From a virus (lineage: Duplodnaviria > Heunggongvirae > Uroviricota > Caudoviricetes), in the IMG/VR virus record IMGVR_UViG_2671180430_000004: a stretch of 7,337 nucleotides of DNA; one strand, given 5' to 3'. Below the pieces are notes generated by a model that did not search any database, had not been told where the DNA came from, and saw only the letters and a list, made by a program, of their open reading frames with translations. A program made the position numbers and the translations under genes. Shown here piece after piece: positions 26-7,337 of this stretch. Position 1 is the first letter of the stretch. Every line of letters starts with the position of its first letter.

Positions 26-379
26 TTAAAAAAAGAACAAATGGTAGTGTCCGCTATTGCCAGTACACCTCAATTGCTCTGCGGCTTCGCTCAGAGCTGG
101 CGTATGTTCCCGGCCTACTGATTCACACAGGTAATCAACGAAACCGGACACCAGTTTTCGTTCGCGAGGCGTGATCGCCCCACCGACCGGAGTCCAGTAA
201 TCGAAACCCAGTTGCAGGAGTTTGAAAAAACGCTTGTGGAATGCGTAGTTACACACACGCTTAAAGTCTGCGTGTATCCACTCACCTATTTTGATTTGAT
301 GCAGAAAATCGCAACTCTCCGGCGTCGCCGGGAGAAGTAATCCGGAAGAGGTTTGTTTGACCAGTTGTATATGTGCCAT
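26..379 (-). CDS. hypothetical protein, 117 aa, second gene of a two-gene operon
   Basis: Track ORF 26..421 starts at a TTG (421-419). An in-frame ATG at 379-377 is preceded by GGAG with a 7-nt spacer, giving MAHIQLVKQ... Stop TAA at 28-26. No family recognised. Confidence 0.55.
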   Translation of the reverse strand: MAHIQLVKQTSSGLLLPATPESCDFLHQIKIGEWIHADFKRVCNYAFHKRFFKLLQLGFDYWTPVGGAITPRERKLVSGFVDYLCESVGREHTPALSEAAEQLRCTGNSGHYHLFFF

Positions 380-417
380 CGGCTTTCTCCGGTGGCACGG
401 TGTTACACAGCAGGAGT

Positions 418-705
418 TCAATCCTGCTCAAGATTGTAGATGAGTTTATTCTTCAGCAAAAGCAGAAAACCAGCCTTAAAACCAATCTCTTTCAAAACCC
501 GTAATGATGTGACAAATTCGTCCTCACGCAAAATAAAACCGTCCGTCAGAAGTCCATTACAAAAATAAAATAACACAGCACCGCTCTTCCTTTGTTGAGA
601 TTGCAAACATCTAATGCGGCAATGGCTGACAATCGCTCCATTCTCAACGCGCACAGCATAGAGGCCATTTTCACTAAAAATTTCACGCAATTCTTCGATT
701 TTCAT
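418..705 (-). CDS. hypothetical protein, 95 aa, AT-rich coding sequence; sits where rem lies after hokD in the K-12 Qin prophage (synteny only)
   Basis: ATG at 705-703 preceded by GGAAGGA with an 8-nt spacer. Stop TGA at 420-418. First gene after the hok terminator. Product identity not established. Confidence 0.55.
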   Translation of the reverse strand: MKIEELREIFSENGLYAVRVENGAIVSHCRIRCLQSQQRKSGAVLFYFCNGLLTDGFILREDEFVTSLRVLKEIGFKAGFLLLLKNKLIYNLEQD

Positions 706-786
706 CTTCAGAATCCTTCCAGATAAATAGCTCTCCCCTGTTCGGGGTCCATCCCTCTTCTCCCTGCGCGCTACTTAAGTGAGTCG

Positions 787-814
787 ATTCTATCTGCGAA
801 GGTGCGCGAATCAA
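787..814 (-). promoter_or_regulatory. candidate sigma70 promoter for the 95-aa/117-aa operon
   Basis: Minus strand TTGATT (814-809), 16-nt spacer, TAGAAT (792-787), about 80 nt upstream of the ATG at 705 and just downstream of the hok terminator. Confidence 0.3.
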
Positions 815-830
815 ATTCACCGGAAATAAA

Positions 831-877
831 CAACAAAAAACCCGCCGAAACGCTGAGAGATCACAGCGATGGGCGGG
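831..877 (-). terminator. rho-independent terminator downstream of hok
   Basis: CCCGCC (841-846) pairs with GGCGGG (872-877), with an inner CGCTG/CAGCG stem (851-855 / 864-868). On the minus-strand transcript the hairpin is followed by UUUUUUGUUGUUUAUUU (plus 840-824). Confidence 0.5.
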
Positions 878-954
878 TTAAGTGCGGGTGCGTTGAGGAT
901 GCCTGACACATCAGAGGTGGGCGGGGATGGGATCAGCTCCCCGCCCGGTCACTC

Positions 955-1110
955 TTACTTCCTGGATTCGTAGTCTACGAAGACAGCGACCTCCGTCTGG
1001 CCGGTTCGGATTCGTACCTCACAGAGGTCTTTCCTCGTTACCAGTGCCGTCACTATGACGGTTAAACAGATGACGATCAGGGCGATTAACATCGCCTTTT
1101 GCTGCTTCAT
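955..1110 (-). CDS. hokD: Hok/Gef family type I toxin, 51 aa, closest in my memory to HokD/RelF
   Basis: From the ATG at 1110-1108 the product is MKQQKAMLIALIVICLTVIVTALVTRKDLCEVRIRTGQTEVAVFVDYESRK, matching recalled HokD/RelF except for the last residues. AAGGAG lies 9 nt upstream. Stop TAA at 957-955. The track ORF 955..1167 is an in-frame TTG extension into the leader. Confidence 0.85.
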   Translation of the reverse strand: MKQQKAMLIALIVICLTVIVTALVTRKDLCEVRIRTGQTEVAVFVDYESRK

Positions 1111-1286
1111 AGCCTGCTTCTCCTTGCCTTTCGGCATGTAAGAGGCTAACCTACATGTGCAAAGCATGAAATTGGCCTCAGATTAATGTTAAGCGTCTTG
1201 CCGGACGCGTAATGTTAACTGGGGCTTTTCTCTATCTGCCTTTTGGTGTTCATGCCTGAAGCAGATAGCCTCAAGCACCCGCAGTC

Positions 1287-1316
1287 ATTCTACTTACCTC
1301 GCCAATATGAAATCAA
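1287..1316 (-). promoter_or_regulatory. candidate hok mRNA promoter
   Basis: Minus strand TTGATT (1316-1311), 18-nt spacer, TAGAAT (1292-1287). Predicts a leader of about 170 nt before the hok ATG, as is typical of hok mRNAs. Confidence 0.3.
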
Positions 1317-1337
1317 TCAGAAAGGTGCCCCATAAAA

Positions 1338-2024
1338 TCACTCCTTCTCTTCTTTACCGTAGTGGAGTTGACCAATTTTGATAAGAGGGCGTCCCTGAGA
1401 TTTGCGGTGTAGATTGGTATCGCGCAGAGAATACACACAGCCACAATATTCCTGCTGATAGAATTTTTCGCGCTTGCTGATTTCAATCATACGGGACGAG
1501 CCGCCCTGCTTGCGCCAGTTATAATCCCAGTACACCATGCCCGGATAATGCGCGACGGCTCGCCGCCCACAGTCGTTAACCTGCTGCATATTTTTCCAGC
1601 GTGAAATGCCCAGTGAACTGCTGATCACACTGAAACCATTTTCAGCGGCGTACAGCGCTGTCCGCTCAAAACGCATGTCAAAACACATGGTGCAACGGAT
1701 CCCTCGTTCGGGCTCCCATTCCATTCCTTTGGCTCGTTCAAACCAGTTGTCTGTGTCGTAATCAGCATCAATAAACGGCACGCCGTGTTGTTCAGCAAAG
1801 CGAATATTCTCATCCTTACGAATTAAATACTCTTTCTGAGGATGAATGTTCGGGTTGTAGAAAAAGATGGTGTAGTCGATTCCCGAGGCCTGAAGCGCCT
1901 CCATCACCTCACCGGAACATGGAGCACAGCAAGAGTGCAGTAGTAGTTTGTTTGCCCCGTTTGGGAGCTCCAATTTGGGCCGTTTGAAATCAGCAACTGT
2001 CATAAATATGTTTATTGGGGTCAT
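1338..2024 (-). CDS. queH: QueH-like protein (DUF208, epoxyqueuosine reductase family)
   Basis: 228-aa ORF with N-terminal [19 protein letters not shown], a central CTMC and a C-terminal YCGC, which I recall as the conserved cysteine pattern of QueH/DUF208. ATG at 2024 (alternative ATG at 2003); neither has a clear Shine-Dalgarno. Stop TGA at 1340-1338. Confidence 0.6.
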
Positions 2025-2171
2025 AAAAATATCAAAGAGTGTAGCATTAGAACGGGGCTATCGGAAACAGATGTGTGACTGCTCCCCGCCCTTTCGGGTG
2101 GTCTCCTGATGATTTGAGGGTGCAGAAATCCCTCCGGTTAAGGATTAAATTTTTAACAGTGCTAAATTTAA

Positions 2172-2510
2172 TTATTCAGTTCTGGATTTTGTCGCCCTGC
2201 GTATCCGCGCTTTCGCGTTACGCTCAATCTGTATCAGCTTTTCTATATTTCTCCGCCTTTCCTGTTCCTCCTGGCGCAATAGCCTTACATCATCTGCCAG
2301 TCTGGTTTCTCTTTTTGCCACAGAGAGCATCCAGTCAAACGGCTCCACAACCGCACCGCAGATTTTACAGCGGACCTGACGCTCTTTTTCGTCAACCCGG
2401 ACAGAGGCGTGATGGCAATATGGTCTTTCCGATGGTTCATAAAGAAAATTAACCTGATTACGAGGGTCATCCTCTTTTACCGGAAATAAAACGATATTGC
2501 TTAACTCATC
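2172..2510 (-). pseudogene. 5'-truncated paralogous copy of the zinc-ribbon gene at 3097..3453
   Basis: Ungapped alignment to 3097..3437 at an offset of 925 bp. The frame is open for 112 codons (DELSNIVLFPVKEDDPRNQ...RRATKSRTE, stop TAA 2174-2172) but has no start. The codon homologous to Glu6 of the intact copy is TAA (2513-2511), which is also the stop of the upstream 123-aa ORF. Confidence 0.55.
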
Positions 2511-2512
2511 TT
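2172..2512. repeat. direct repeat copy A, about 341 bp
   Basis: About 94-95% identical by eye to 3097..3437 with no indels, roughly 18 substitutions and a 9-bp divergent patch near the 3' end. Confidence 0.85.
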
Positions 2513-2882
2513 AAATTGACCCAATCAGATATCCAGCGTCCTCCGCCGGAAATTGAGCAATAAGCTCACCTGTTCGTTCAGCGAGCTCGCGTGCATCACA
2601 TGGAATGTCTTCTATGTAAACAGTGTGCGGTACTGCCCTCATTTTAATGCTGCTTTTTTGCTTTTTTGCAAGGGTATCCCAATATGCAGCTACGATGCTG
2701 AAGCAGTATGAGCGGGCATGCATCAACCTTGACTGCCCGGTTTTGTAATTGCCCGCATAACCTTTGGCCATGGCTTTACAAGTTTGATATCTTTCCAGAT
2801 TAGAAAACTCATTATCTGTAAAAAAATCAAAATGTTGCACATTCATAATGTAAAATCCTAATGTATCAAACATGCGGGCCAT
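2511..2882 (-). CDS. hypothetical protein, 123 aa, cargo ORF between the repeat copies
   Basis: ATG at 2882-2880 giving MARMFDTLGFYIMNVQHF... Stop TAA at 2513-2511. No obvious Shine-Dalgarno at the first ATG; an alternative ATG (MNVQ, about 2846) has AGGA upstream. The N-terminal third is encoded by markedly AT-rich DNA. No family recognised. Confidence 0.5.
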   Translation of the reverse strand: MARMFDTLGFYIMNVQHFDFFTDNEFSNLERYQTCKAMAKGYAGNYKTGQSRLMHARSYCFSIVAAYWDTLAKKQKSSIKMRAVPHTVYIEDIPCDARELAERTGELIAQFPAEDAGYLIGSI

Positions 2883-3096
2883 AACATCTCATGGTGGCGC
2901 ATAGCAAACTGGCCCGAAGAATATCACGCACCAAGTCGATCTCATAACCCGTTATGACAATAAATCTTTGTAGCTGAACTCACTTGGTGATTTGTCAATC
3001 ATTCCTGGCCTCCAGTTCGTCCTGAATCTCTTTATCGAGTTCACCGTATTTGTTAGTCCTCATCACTCACGACTTGACTTCCAGAAATAACCTTGA

Positions 3097-3437
3097 TTAT
3101 TCGGGGCTATATTTTGTCACCCTGCGTATCCGCGCTTTCGCATTACGCTCAATCTGGATTAGCTTTTCTATATTTTTTCGCCTTTCCCGCTCCTCCTGGC
3201 GCAAGAGCCTTACATCATCTGCCAGTCTGGTTTCTCTTTTCGCCACAGAGAGCATCCAGTCAAATGGCTCCACAACTGCACCGCAAATTTTACAGCGGAC
3301 CTGACGCTCTTTTTCGTCAACCCGGACAGAAGCGTGATGGCAATATGGTCTTTCCGATGGCTCATAAAGAAAATTAACCTGATTACGAGGGTTATCCTCT
3401 TTTACCGGAAATAAAACAATATTGCTTAACTCATCTT
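3097..3437. repeat. direct repeat copy B, about 341 bp
   Basis: Homologous to 2172..2512; this copy carries the intact gene. Confidence 0.85.
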
Positions 3438-3453
3438 CTGGTTTTATTTCCAT
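3097..3453 (-). CDS. small Cys/His zinc-ribbon-like protein, 118 aa
   Basis: ATG at 3453-3451 preceded by AAGGAGAGGAG; the track start is an upstream GTG at 3510. Stop TAA at 3099-3097. Motif C-H-H...C-K-I-C-G. Differences from the paralogous copy are about 13 synonymous to 4 nonsynonymous in this frame, supporting minus-strand coding. Confidence 0.7.
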   Translation of the reverse strand: MEIKPEDELSNIVLFPVKEDNPRNQVNFLYEPSERPYCHHASVRVDEKERQVRCKICGAVVEPFDWMLSVAKRETRLADDVRLLRQEERERRKNIEKLIQIERNAKARIRRVTKYSPE

Positions 3454-3510
3454 GCTCCTCTCCTTTGATGCGAATGCCAGCGGTAATTGAAGCCTGATAG
3501 CTAATTTCAC

Positions 3511-3933
3511 TCACAGTACCGCCTCCTGAAAATCACCCTGATAGAAAGCCGGTACACGCTGCATAACTTCACTCTTCCGGCACTCGCGACAGATTATGTT
3601 CTGATGTCTGTCGTAGCGGCGTATTTCTCCGTCCGGTAATGACCAGATAAGGTCCGGATCAACCACAGATGGTTTCTTCAGCTTTGCCCTCGAGAGTTTT
3701 TTGCGGGCGTTTTGCCAGTCCTTACGAGCCTGTTCAGACGGGAATAACCCGTAGCCAGAGTTGTATACATCCCCACTGGCAACCAGCTCTCTGGCGAGAA
3801 CGCTTATTAAATATCTTGTCGCCCCGGTTTTAGCTTCCAGTTGTCGTAACGTCTCGCGCCCACTCTGGCGTACGAGTTCAACAACCTGCCCCTTAATTTT
3901 TTCCCGCTCTTCCTGTGTAAATACTTTTGCCAT
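3511..3933 (-). CDS. Ren-like protein (tentative), 140 aa
   Basis: ATG at 3933-3931 (MAKVFTQ...); the track start is a TTG at 3948. Stop TGA at 3513-3511. The C-terminal ICRECRKSEVMQRV resembles the C-terminus of lambda Ren as I recall it (FKECRQSAAMKRV), and the gene sits after the P-analog as ren does after P. Identity is tentative. Confidence 0.55.
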   Translation of the reverse strand: MAKVFTQEEREKIKGQVVELVRQSGRETLRQLEAKTGATRYLISVLARELVASGDVYNSGYGLFPSEQARKDWQNARKKLSRAKLKKPSVVDPDLIWSLPDGEIRRYDRHQNIICRECRKSEVMQRVPAFYQGDFQEAVL

Positions 3934-3948
3934 AAGCGCCCCCGGCAA

Positions 3949-4674
3949 TCACTTTTCCGACACAATACGACCGGAGGAATCGACAATCTGTCGAACAATA
4001 TCCCGGTGCTTGTTCAGCTCCCGCAACGCGGCGCAGACACGCTCCCACTTCTGGACATGACTTTTCGCCCGACGCAGTTCGCGGTTTGCCATATGCAGCG
4101 ATGGTAAAACCAGGTCATCCGCTTGCGTTTCGGTGAACGATGGCAACGACTGCACAATGTCCGCCACAGTTTCTGTTTTAATTTCTTCCTGTGTTGCAGC
4201 TTCCTGTACCGGTAACGCAACACCTGCTGGCTGAGGAAAGACTTTACCATCCGTTTCCGCTATGGATGCGGCTTTCGGCTCTGCCGGTAAATCAGCGCCC
4301 GGTATGCAGTACCGAAATTTACCGCCCTGATTCACGCGAATCAGACGCCCTTTGCTGATTGCCATGGCCAGCGATGAATTCGCCCGGCGGGAGGTAATCC
4401 CGAACATCAGTGCCAGCTCATCCGCCGTTTGTGGGCCATGTTGTTCAATCGCCTCAGTCAGCATTTGCGCTGTCACTTTCGGTACCGGTGACACTGGTTC
4501 ACTTTCACCAGCCTGAATCAGCCACCACATCGAACCCTTGTTATCCGCTTCACCACGGCGCTTCAGTTTCCACAGTTCGTTGACCGCATCTTCACGGCTG
4601 ATTCCAAGGCGGGACGCCACCACATGTGAAGAGGCTCTTTTCAGTGCTTTCAGTGCGTCAAATACAGTTTCCAT
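3949..4674 (-). CDS. hypothetical protein with two tandem winged-helix-like domains, 241 aa
   Basis: ATG at 4674-4672 preceded by GGAGG with a 7-nt spacer; the track start is a TTG at 4692. Stop TGA at 3951-3949. Two HTH-like segments ([19 protein letters not shown] and [24 protein letters not shown]) separated from a basic C-terminal region. Confidence 0.7.
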
Positions 4675-4695
4675 TAAAACATCCTCCAACAAAAA

Positions 4696-5442
4696 TTACT
4701 TCACAACTCCCGGAAAGCTGACATTTGAACGCCAGCTATCCCAGTTAAACGTCACCCACCGACAACCGTTCATGGTCATGCGGTCCATAATCCTCTCACC
4801 AAGAAGCGTGCTCATTGCGGCATGATTCAGGTTTGTTAACATCCCGACACTGCACAGTGATGCTGTCCGGCGATCAATTATCTGGTGCAATACCACCTGC
4901 TCGTTTTTCGTCTCCCGCTGAATGCCTATTTCATCCAGGACCAGCAAATCAACCCCGCAAAGCTCCTGTAAAAATTTTTCACCGGATTTGCCGTTGTCGT
5001 AGCTGTCATGCAACACGCTCATGACATCAGACTCGGTGACGATAATCACGCTGCGCCCCTTCGCCATCAGCCGGTTACCCATCGCCGCTGCAAGGTGATT
5101 TTTCCCGGTGCCGGTTTTACCGCTGAACACAAAATTCGTGCACCCGGTCATCAGTTCGTCAGCTATGGATTTGGCCTGGCTCAGCGCGTATTTTTGCCCG
5201 TCGTTCTGCACCTGATAATTCGCAAACGAGCATTTGCTGTGCAGAGGCTGGATGCCCGAACGATTCAGGATTTTTTCCACCCGCAACTGGCGATTCTGGC
5301 GGTTAATCTCCTCGCTGCGTTTTCGTCCTTCAGCAAGTTGCCATTCCCGCCACTCCTCCACCGTCCGGTACGGTGGAACCGCCCCCTGTGGTGCAAGTCT
5401 GTGAATACGTTCAAGAACCCCGGCTGCCGCAATGTTTTTCAT
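4696..5442 (-). CDS. DnaC-like AAA+ helicase loader (phage P analog, Rac YdaV-like)
   Basis: 248 aa. Walker A FSGKTGTGKNHLAAA with the DnaC-type GKN, Walker B LLVLDEIG. ATG at 5442-5440 lies 6 nt after the stop of the upstream initiator gene. Stop TAA at 4698-4696. Confidence 0.85.
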   Translation of the reverse strand: MKNIAAAGVLERIHRLAPQGAVPPYRTVEEWREWQLAEGRKRSEEINRQNRQLRVEKILNRSGIQPLHSKCSFANYQVQNDGQKYALSQAKSIADELMTGCTNFVFSGKTGTGKNHLAAAMGNRLMAKGRSVIIVTESDVMSVLHDSYDNGKSGEKFLQELCGVDLLVLDEIGIQRETKNEQVVLHQIIDRRTASLCSVGMLTNLNHAAMSTLLGERIMDRMTMNGCRWVTFNWDSWRSNVSFPGVVK

Positions 5443-5448
5443 GCCACA

Positions 5449-6513
5449 TCACCCCCTGAATCCCGGCGGAATTTCGGTATCCGGTTCAGAAATATGATTC
5501 ACACAACGCTGGTTGTTCGTGCCGCTTACCGGGAGCAACCAGGGGTTTTCAAAATTCCGGTCCGGCCCAAAAAACGTCGTCGCTCGCTGAACAAATTCCG
5601 TTCCCGCTTTCCCGGTCGCCGCCAGGTATCTCGCGTAACGCCTCACACCATCCAGCATGGTCTCTGGTGGCACCCCCTCGCGCAATCTGGCCTTCCAGGC
5701 ACTGAATGCGGATTTCTTCGGGTTTGCCCCGGCACGCAACGGGTATTCCCGCCAGACCTGTTCGAACACATCCGGATAATCCACTCGTCCCACAGGCTGC
5801 CCGGTGTTTTCCGGGGCTACCCGATCGGCTTCCCGCTGAATGGCGGAATCGGCTTCAGGCTGCTGCAGTTGGAGTGATTGCTCCGGCCTTGCGGTCATCA
5901 CCTGCTGCACAGCGCCCGAATCGGCTTTCAGCGCATACGCTGAATCGGCTTCCGGTGTCGAGCCTGCTGGCTGACCAGGATTGACGGTCTGAACATCCCC
6001 TGCCTGGTTCGTGGCGTTTTTTACGCCATGGACCATAGTGTTTTGATCTTCTTTATCTGTATCTTTATCTGTATCTGTCGTGACTCGTCGTGACATGTGC
6101 GTGACATTTCGTGACGCGCCGTGACAATCGCCATTTTGTTCCCGCTTTCTTTCCCTCTCTCGCTGCGCCCTCTTGCGCTCTGCAGGAGATTTTGCGGTTT
6201 GCGAAATATTGCCGTTGTCCTCTTTAAGCACCTGGCGTTTTTCCCATCCAGTGATTAAATCACCATCAAGTACCCGCCCCTGCATCGTCTGCAAAATTGA
6301 ATCAATTACCTCTTCTGTCACGTCGAGCGCACTTGCCAAATCTTCTGTCGTGACATCAATGTGACCTCGCGTGACATTTCGTGACGCGCTCACCAGGAGG
6401 TGGATATACACTGCCATCACTGTTGCAATTGGCTGCCCTGACACCCTGGCAATTGTTCGCCACTTAGGGTCATTTGGCATGTCATGCCATAATCTGAGCC
6501 AGGCGTTAGCCAT
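5449..6513 (-). CDS. phage replication initiation protein (O-like replisome organiser)
   Basis: ATG at 6513-6511; the track start is a GTG at 6519. The N-terminal domain (WLRLWHDMPNDPKWRTIARVSGQ...) resembles phage replisome-organiser/DnaD-like N-domains, followed by a charged low-complexity linker and a conserved C-terminal domain. It lies directly upstream of the DnaC-like gene and contains iteron arrays. Confidence 0.8.
   Translation of the reverse strand: MANAWLRLWHDMPNDPKWRTIARVSGQPIATVMAVYIHLLVSASRNVTRGHIDVTTEDLASALDVTEEVIDSILQTMQGRVLDGDLITGWEKRQVLKEDNGNISQTAKSPAERKRAQRERERKREQNGDCHGASRNVTHMSRRVTTDTDKDTDKEDQNTMVHGVKNATNQAGDVQTVNPGQPAGSTPEADSAYALKADSGAVQQVMTARPEQSLQLQQPEADSAIQREADRVAPENTGQPVGRVDYPDVFEQVWREYPLRAGANPKKSAFSAWKARLREGVPPETMLDGVRRYARYLAATGKAGTEFVQRATTFFGPDRNFENPWLLPVSGTNNQRCVNHISEPDTEIPPGFRG
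6035..6125. repeat. putative origin core: AT-rich tract plus five phased CGTGAC iterons
   Basis: GTGAC at 6080, 6090, 6101, 6111 and 6121 (spacing 10, 11, 10, 10 bp), immediately 3' of the AT-rich tract ATCTTCTTTATCTGTATCTTTATCTGTATCTGT (about 6046-6078). Lies in the linker-coding part of the initiator gene. Confidence 0.55.
6317..6389. repeat. second iteron array: four phased GTGAC plus one inverted copy
   Basis: GTGAC at 6350, 6361, 6371 and 6381 (spacing 11, 10, 10 bp) and GTCACG at 6317-6322. The 21-bp block GCGTGACATTTCGTGACGCGC at 6369-6389 is identical to 6099-6119. Confidence 0.55.
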
Positions 6514-6584
6514 ACTCACCTCTTCTGATACCGAATCTTTTTACTCACGAGTTGCCGGGAGCGATTCGATATGGCTATTGTCAG

Positions 6585-7010
6585 TCAATGTACTGCCACA
6601 GCATTTCCTGCCGGGCCACCACGGTTCATCTGATTGAAACCGGCGATTGCCACTGCGACAAAATCATCAGCGTCTCTCACCAGTCGTTCATGCGTCTCCA
6701 CCAGTTCCCGAAAATAAGCTGAACTGTGGCTGCGCATTCGAGCCACCAGCGGAGGTGGCATTGCCCTTTCGATCGCAGGTAACAACGCCTGAATTTTTTC
6801 AACAGCGTCAGGGGTGTCTTTATCCAGCCAACGGAAAATCTTTTGGGTGTTGAGATAAAGCGTGTTGTGCTTGCTGTCGTTATGCAGAACCGGAAACGTC
6901 ATTCCCAGTTCGAAATAAACCCTGGTTATTTCAGCTGCCGGAACTTTTTCACCGTCCGGATGCGCCCAGGCTTTCATCGCCATGCGGATGTGTTCATGCT
7001 TGATTTTCAT
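6585..7010 (-). CDS. YdaT-family protein (CII-like regulator)
   Basis: 141 aa starting MKIKHEHI and ending AVH, matching my recollection of Rac YdaT in length and termini. The ATG overlaps the stop of the upstream gene as ATGA (7010-7007). Confidence 0.65.
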   Translation of the reverse strand: MKIKHEHIRMAMKAWAHPDGEKVPAAEITRVYFELGMTFPVLHNDSKHNTLYLNTQKIFRWLDKDTPDAVEKIQALLPAIERAMPPPLVARMRSHSSAYFRELVETHERLVRDADDFVAVAIAGFNQMNRGGPAGNAVAVH

Positions 7011-7270
7011 GAATCAACCCCCGCCGATGGTTGTGTGTTAGCCTGAAACTCAGCAGGCAAGCCGTCAGTTGGGTTGGGGTAGGTTTTACTGTCAATCTCA
7101 TGTGGGGTCACCACCCATCCCGTTGCTTCACACCAACGTAATATTTTTTCTCCTGTAAGTTTTGCACGCCCCGTTATAACGTGGCTGACCATCCCTTGGG
7201 ATGCGCCAACAATCTCAGCAAATGAACTCTGGGTTATATGAAAATGATGCAAATATTCTCCAAGATTCAT
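7007..7270 (-). CDS. Cro-like HTH regulator (YdaS family)
   Basis: ATG at 7270-7268 preceded by AGGG; the track start is a TTG at 7297. HTH segment QSSFAEIVGASQGMVSHVITGRAKLTGEKILRW. First gene after an AT-rich promoter region at the window edge. Confidence 0.65.
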   Translation of the reverse strand: MNLGEYLHHFHITQSSFAEIVGASQGMVSHVITGRAKLTGEKILRWCEATGWVVTPHEIDSKTYPNPTDGLPAEFQANTQPSAGVDS

Positions 7271-7304
7271 AATCCGCCCTATGTGATGTGTTACCAATGC
7301 ATAA

Positions 7305-7333
7305 TTAATAGCACTGTTATTTTTAAAAGTAAA
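7305..7333 (-). promoter_or_regulatory. candidate PR-like early-right promoter and operator region
   Basis: Minus strand TTTACT (7333-7328), 17-nt spacer, TATTAA (7310-7305), in AT-rich sequence with short palindromes (ATTAAT, TTTAAA). A divergent repressor gene would lie beyond the window edge. Confidence 0.3.
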
Positions 7334-7337
7334 TAGT

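Follow-up and report, generated by a model that had tools for sequence, protein, structure and literature searches.

A 123-codon reading frame at a mosaic prophage joint is very probably a truncated relic of a Type II restriction–modification methyltransferase gene

A 123-codon open reading frame (ORF) in a Caudoviricetes sequence from IMG/VR (IMGVR_UViG_2671180430_000004; positions 2511..2882, minus strand, ATG start to TAA stop, of the 7,337-nt stretch analysed here, hereafter the window) is, judged by sequence identity, the first fifth (5′ 20%) of a known prophage restriction–modification (R-M) methyltransferase gene. We consider it very probable that the ORF is a 3′-truncated pseudogene, the dead relic of this Type II R-M gene at a mosaic prophage joint. 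Its product is 100% identical to residues 1-123 of WP_000113425.1 (610 aa; HsdM-family Type II DNA methyltransferase), and because its codons are the same as the first 123 of the annotated 610-aa gene, we regard it as a real coding sequence rather than a chance ORF. The initial annotation had put it forward as a candidate defence, anti-defence or toxin moron; the DNA indeed derives from a Type II R-M cassette, a defence moron, but it is the 5′ 20% of a methyltransferase gene and not an independent gene of unknown function. A stand-alone role of any of these kinds found no support, with the catalytic motifs and the partner endonuclease missing and the stop codon made by the joint itself.

The gene set of the window, on the minus strand, has an arrangement typical for a Rac-like lambdoid prophage and comprises the following features:

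Gene order, minus strand, first part: Cro-like, YdaT, replisome organiser, DnaC-like ATPase, DUF1627, DUF977/Ren-like, zinc-ribbon (PHROG 1621)
Gene order, minus strand, continued: 123-aa ORF, partial second zinc-ribbon copy, QueH, hok/sok, 95-aa gene (Rem-like), truncated DUF1367/NinB
2512..7337: prophage A segment, with Cro, YdaT, replisome organiser, DnaC-like, DUF1627, DUF977, zinc-ribbon gene and the start of the R-M cassette (BLAST)
73..2512: prophage B segment, with zinc-ribbon remnant, QueH, hok/sok, Rem-like 95-aa gene and truncated DUF1367/NinB (BLAST)
3097..3453, minus strand: repeat copy 1, an intact 118-aa zinc-ribbon phrog_1621 gene, prophage-A allele (PHROG 1621, E 1.8e-54)
2883..3096, minus strand: native 5′ non-coding region of the R-M cassette, from the zinc-ribbon gene to the methyltransferase start (0/214 nt differ)
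2514..2882, minus strand: methyltransferase codons 1-123, gamma-class, Eco57I/N6_Mtase-type, N-terminal helical domain only (identity, PADLOC, AlphaFold2)
2511..2513, minus strand: joint-made TAA stop, with the breakpoint at base 2512 (three-way alignment)
2172..2510, minus strand: repeat copy 2, a 5′-truncated zinc-ribbon remnant with codons 7-118 and stop, prophage-B allele (PHROG 1621, E 1.4e-24)

The ORF lies between two direct-repeat copies (2168-2512 and 3093-3437) in an accessory region, as first described and as confirmed by direct-repeat search and BLAST. Its N-terminal third, which had been singled out as AT-rich, has 32.3% GC (2759-2882) against 49.4% for the window, with 46.8% and 47.6% in its remaining two thirds, 48.6% in QueH and 51.1% in DUF977. 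The initial annotation had recognised no motif in the product and had asked for profile searches; the 123-aa product had zero matches in Pfam (neither N6_Mtase nor Eco57I), PHROGs and NCBIfam, but PADLOC identified a known family, MTase_II (PDLC03338), with fragment residues 7-123 matching profile positions 2-116 of 604 (E 5.8e-36). By this homology, over 2-116 of 604 positions only, the ORF falls in the gamma-class N6-adenine DNA methyltransferase family, and the intact 610-aa protein matches the same profile from end to end (E 6.7e-300).

The closest known entity is the intact R-M cassette of S. sonnei and E. coli prophages (WP_000113425.1, 610 aa, with WP_001053102.1, 360 aa). With it the window shares residues 1-123, the 214-nt upstream region and the upstream neighbours (zinc-ribbon phrog_1621, DUF977, DUF1627, DnaC-like and replisome organiser), as well as 4826 of 4826 nt of positions 2512-7337 in two chromosomes (L009 and L012) that carry the 610-aa methyltransferase and the 360-aa endonuclease intact, followed by IS1. 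Compared with a further intact locus (L001), none of 369 coding and none of 214 upstream nucleotides differ (0/583 together), and the 214 upstream nucleotides are also without difference from L002. Loci with the intact methyltransferase were reached through the neighbouring 118-aa zinc-ribbon protein, and the source names of the methyltransferase cluster are mostly Shigella sonnei. Megablast of positions 2400-3100 against 5,426 complete E. coli genomes recovered the ORF DNA in only two, in both cases at the 5′ end of a gene annotated as "HsdM family class I SAM-dependent methyltransferase", with a "BsuBI/PstI family type II restriction endonuclease" gene next. The BsuBI_PstI_RE gene likewise adjoins the methyltransferase in L001, L002 and L008-L017, whereas in the window the cognate endonuclease gene is absent beside the ORF, where the zinc-ribbon remnant and then QueH stand.

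Neither the N6_Mtase and Eco57I domains of the intact protein nor its alignments to M.TaqI and Type I HsdM structures start before about residue 111-130, with GAYYTPPP at 136-143, DPACGGG at 167-173, NPPY at 260-263 and the Eco57I domain at 249-337. The ORF stops at residue 123 and lacks AdoMet-binding motifs X and I (GAYYTPPP and DPACGGG), and the window as a whole lacks residues 124-610, with catalytic motif IV (NPPY) and the C-terminal target-recognition region; the nin region of another prophage stands there instead. Going by these motifs, the 123-aa product cannot bind AdoMet or methylate DNA, and it is most likely without function.

Homology to the methyltransferase ends at base 2512, and the BLAST alignments of prophage A type and prophage B type both end there. 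A three-way alignment revealed that the crossover shares a single base (1-nt microhomology) and joins codon 123/124 of the methyltransferase to codon 6/7 of the zinc-ribbon gene, so that the stop codon takes TA from Tyr124 (TAT) of the former and A from Glu6 (GAA) of the latter. The intact protein reads ...GYLIGSI-YTVMLPSAYRSELGAYYTPPPLV... and the window reads ...GYLIGSI-stop-DELSNIVLFPV..., in which DELSN... is the zinc-ribbon protein from residue 7 onward. Translation of 2172-2882 places repeat copy 2 in frame with the methyltransferase fragment, with the TAA dividing them. On the far side of the joint, positions 73-2512 are 99.7-99.8% identical across 2440 nt to two other loci (L005 and L006), with the match stopping exactly at 2512; the order in these loci is a complete zinc-ribbon gene, QueH, hokD, the 95-aa gene and DUF1367. 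Both parental arrangements are present in a single genome, E. coli FDAARGOS_943.

The repeat itself spans 345 bp at 93.3% identity by BLAST (the direct-repeat search alone gave 2163-2462 and 3088-3387 at 92%). Copy 1 is the usual upstream neighbour of the R-M cassette; it is annotated as a 118-aa hypothetical protein in L001, and the exact protein adjoins the intact 610-aa methyltransferase in many genomes. Copy 2 is 99.7% identical to L005 and L006, where the complete gene directly precedes QueH, and a 58-aa call on this remnant was found elsewhere only in unrelated IS-truncated contexts. Because the copies are only 93% identical, we read them as two alleles and rejected a recent tandem duplication, each copy matching a different prophage.

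We propose that the starting system was a prophage-borne 610-aa HsdM-family N6-adenine methyltransferase with its 360-aa BsuBI/PstI-family endonuclease. Illegitimate recombination through 1-nt microhomology, between an S. sonnei-type cryptic prophage and a second, co-resident lambdoid prophage, would have removed methyltransferase residues 124-610 together with the endonuclease gene, and the QueH–hok/sok–NinB region of the other prophage would have taken the place of the lost part; the same crossover would have left the 345-bp direct repeat and made the TAA stop. Illegitimate recombination between co-resident prophages is typical of IS-rich Shigella genomes. Like other lambdoid mosaic joints, this one passes sharply from one phage lineage to another through 1-nt microhomology, with genes truncated on either side and the end of an IS600 2.4 kb away, and its sole particular is that it is in frame and makes its own stop codon. 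In FDAARGOS_943 (NZ_CP065615.1), the parental prophages lie at 1591817 and 2086863, about 495 kb apart and in the same orientation, and projected onto this genome the window joint (a prophage-B coordinate, then a lower prophage-A one) would correspond to a duplication-type or circle-type junction rather than a simple deletion. This layout makes it probable that the prophages were arranged differently at the event, or that the exchange was inter-molecular (phage × prophage).

The 30-nt sequence across the joint (GATTGGGTCAATTTAAGATGAGTTAAGCAA) had no other exact occurrence in species-representative genomes, JGI metagenomes or IMG/VR contigs, and none among 5,426 complete E. coli genomes. This singularity and the repeat-rich surroundings would suit an assembly artefact, a chimera of two repeat-sharing prophages whose real genome carries an intact methyltransferase gene. 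Assembly chimeras, however, arise within shared repeats and yield one hybrid copy, whereas here the methyltransferase sequence at the break is unique, the homology amounts to 1 nt, and each repeat copy retains its allele-specific differences. An independent S. sonnei draft contig (L007; GCA_001258415.1, CXEN01000180.1) bears on the question from both sides. It runs from the zinc-ribbon gene through the intergenic region and the methyltransferase 5′ end to the 3′ part of copy 2 and QueH, with flanks 99.95-100% identical to the window, and window positions 2400-2673 are missing from it. Here too the methyltransferase 5′ end leads into the copy-2/QueH segment instead of the remainder of the gene, which supports the remnant reading. 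On the other side, a single N stands exactly at the contig's own joint. Overall, we hold an assembly artefact in the window to be highly improbable.

As far as its sequence goes, the joint in the draft contig may itself reflect a true in-frame deletion of 273 bp or else a scaffold gap that collapsed. It is annotated with a 145-aa "putative bacteriophage protein" (CSS52041.1, P0003; position 6210) that combines methyltransferase residues 1-70 with the zinc-ribbon C-terminus, and this fusion gene, which spans the N, may be a scaffold-gap artefact. We had considered the fusion as proof of further decay, a use weakened by the N exactly at the contig joint. Further partial duplicates of the DUF977 and zinc-ribbon genes, and an inserted IS600, also lie on this contig.

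The exact 123-, 120- and 111-aa products were absent from about 15 billion proteins, and recurrence as an ORF of 123-aa length, the mark of a stand-alone moron, was not found in other genomes. A word-index homology search returned five short proteins, all of them pieces of the same methyltransferase or a fusion, and an exhaustive phmmer search of 1.84 billion representatives returned 11 short matches with no stand-alone family; the short relatives that we inspected were frameshifted or partial pieces of the long methyltransferase. With tblastn, 50,697 phage records held no match to the 123-aa N-terminal domain, and plasmids held only distant full-length methylases. PADLOC matched MTase_II only, with no other defence, anti-restriction or toxin family found there or in Pfam, PHROGs or NCBIfam.

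We also weighed the reverse order of events, in which the 123-aa ORF would be an ancestral stand-alone gene later fused to a catalytic module to give the 610-aa methyltransferase. The domain is modular to the extent that the Stx2a-phage enzyme and M.TaqI lack it, but distant relatives on Burkholderia and Pseudomonas plasmids already have it fused to a methylase. Moreover, the fragment and its upstream region match the long gene at every nucleotide, codon 6 of the neighbour contributes to the stop and a 5′-truncated copy of another gene lies downstream, which together set the direction as long gene to fragment. The anatomy of the joint thus effectively refutes an ancestral stand-alone gene, to which we assign next to no chance.

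A different question is whether the truncated product still acts. Distant relatives retain the N-terminal domain at 27-49% identity, among them full-length "Eco57I methylase domain" proteins on the Burkholderia and Pseudomonas plasmids, and for that reason we regard it as a genuine domain of a methyltransferase subfamily. AlphaFold2, run with a 12-sequence alignment, modelled the fragment with a mean pLDDT of 81.5 and a pTM of 0.74, with residues 1-15 disordered and helices at 28-43, 49-74, 95-108 and 113-122; structural comparison of this model gave nothing above generic helical matches. A consensus sigma-70 promoter scan of 2000-3700 gave 0 sites, a relaxed scan a single weak 8/12 match at 2945-2918, and a terminator scan no minus-strand terminator after the ORF; transcription by read-through from the early-right operon is possible. 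Because the fragment keeps the upstream region of the intact gene unchanged, it may, on sequence grounds, still be transcribed and translated into the 123-aa helical N-terminal domain. Expression of a stable small protein is conceivable, with the upstream region and start codon intact and a confidently predicted fold (pLDDT 81.5).

The 214-nt upstream region contains a small minus-strand ORF within 2952-3044, 100% conserved with the intact loci, of 30 aa from a GTG or alternatively 16 aa (MIDKSPSEFSYKDLLS) if translation begins at an ATG with GGAGG ahead of it. It may encode a leader or regulatory peptide of the R-M operon or have arisen by chance. A controller protein or leader gene upstream was rejected, the region offering just this 16/30-aa ORF without supporting evidence.

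Expression of the 123-aa fragment would leave room for a truncated domain with a kept or gained function, binding the methyltransferase or endonuclease of an intact copy in a dominant-negative or regulatory manner, or acting on incoming phage. The fully conserved native 5′ region, the confident helical bundle modelled over residues 28-122, the existence of the domain in distant family members and the intact copies of the same system held by related genomes all speak for it. Yet no collection holds a stand-alone homologue, the stop codon is an accident of the joint and zero nucleotide divergence from the intact gene leaves no time for adaptation; the structural matches are no better than generic, and no toxin, anti-restriction or defence profile apart from PDLC03338 was matched. 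We therefore judge a functional stump very unlikely, and we give a little less credence again to its specific form, in which the orphaned domain would be expressed from the intact R-M upstream region and would modulate restriction or methylation in trans, on an intact copy in the cell or on an incoming element. If true, a trans-acting stump would mark a route from defence-gene remnants to regulators or anti-restriction factors.

The preferred reading, a dead 5′ relic, places the ORF among known R-M systems. EcoGIII, the BsuBI/PstI R-M system of Stx2a prophages, methylates CTGCAG (PMC3893438). Like EcoGIII (PMC3893438), the intact cassette is a Type II R-M moron of an E. coli/Shigella lambdoid prophage with a BsuBI/PstI-family endonuclease and a gamma-class N6-adenine methyltransferase, but identity to the Stx2a-phage methyltransferase is only about 26% and confined to residues 248-584. 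A further candidate for comparison is the helical domain at the N terminus of Type I HsdM (Pfam PF12161) and Type IIG methyltransferases (for example, PDB 2okc, 3ufb and 3s1s).

Some relatives of the cassette show other changes. In L010 and L011, single bases lost from a C7 tract (nt 414-421, coding YYTPPP of motif X) and an A7 tract (about 545-551) shift the reading frame of the methyltransferase; a frameshifted methyltransferase also occurs in proteins P0001 and P0005, and the endonuclease gene is intact in such cassettes. The frameshifts may stem from homopolymer errors in long reads, or the methyltransferase may be switched on and off by strand slippage.

The slot that the cassette occupied, downstream of the DUF977 and zinc-ribbon genes, is a hotspot for defence and accessory genes, and the suggestion of such a hotspot in the initial annotation was upheld by the varied cargo at the equivalent slot in other genomes. 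In Rac-like prophages, this slot carries BsuBI/PstI-type R-M, NgoMIV-type R-M, HNH/DUF4014 or ead/Ea22 genes. At the place equivalent to about 2100-3100 of the window, the cargo is BsuBI/PstI-type R-M plus ParDE in L001 and L002, QueH and then a Dcm-type methyltransferase with an NgoMIV-family endonuclease in L003, and an HNH endonuclease plus DUF4014 in L004. Just upstream of the slot, L002 also has ead/Ea22 and DUF4406 genes between its DUF977 and zinc-ribbon genes.

Elsewhere in the window, positions 1-72 are the end of an IS600 element (IS3 family) that truncates the DUF1367/NinB-like gene (26-421), which is left with profile positions 1-102 of 198; IS600 cuts this prophage short in the same way in the 4.8-Mb Shigella-type genomes L024 and L026. 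A complete hok/sok type I toxin–antitoxin locus lies on the minus strand at 955-1280, with a HokD-like Hok/Gef ORF at 955..1167 (Pfam HOK_GEF, E 9.8e-23) and a full-length Rfam match to the sok antitoxin RNA at 1105-1280 (117 bits). It is neighboured by the gene for epoxyqueuosine reductase QueH (1338-2024, minus strand; Pfam QueH, E 1.9e-65), a tRNA-modification enzyme carried as phage cargo, and the same 221-aa protein, without any change, has entries in 5,483 blocks of a public collection. Inside the replisome-organiser (O-like) gene at 5449..6519, clusters of short GTGAC-containing direct repeats (6087-6125 and 6347-6385; for example, GTCGTGACATGTGCGTGACATTTCGTGACGCGCCGTGAC) look like origin iterons.

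Taken as a gene, the feature is an already-known one in truncated form, and ordinary. In annotation, the label of pseudogene or remnant is the right one for the ORF, which should not be carried forward as a candidate for a defence gene. Its joint is a base-pair record of how a prophage R-M system is lost, with one crossover taking the methyltransferase catalytic core and the endonuclease together, a joint loss that leaves no endonuclease gene without its methyltransferase. It also confirms that, in Rac-like prophages, the position following the DUF977 and zinc-ribbon genes is a hotspot for R-M cargo.
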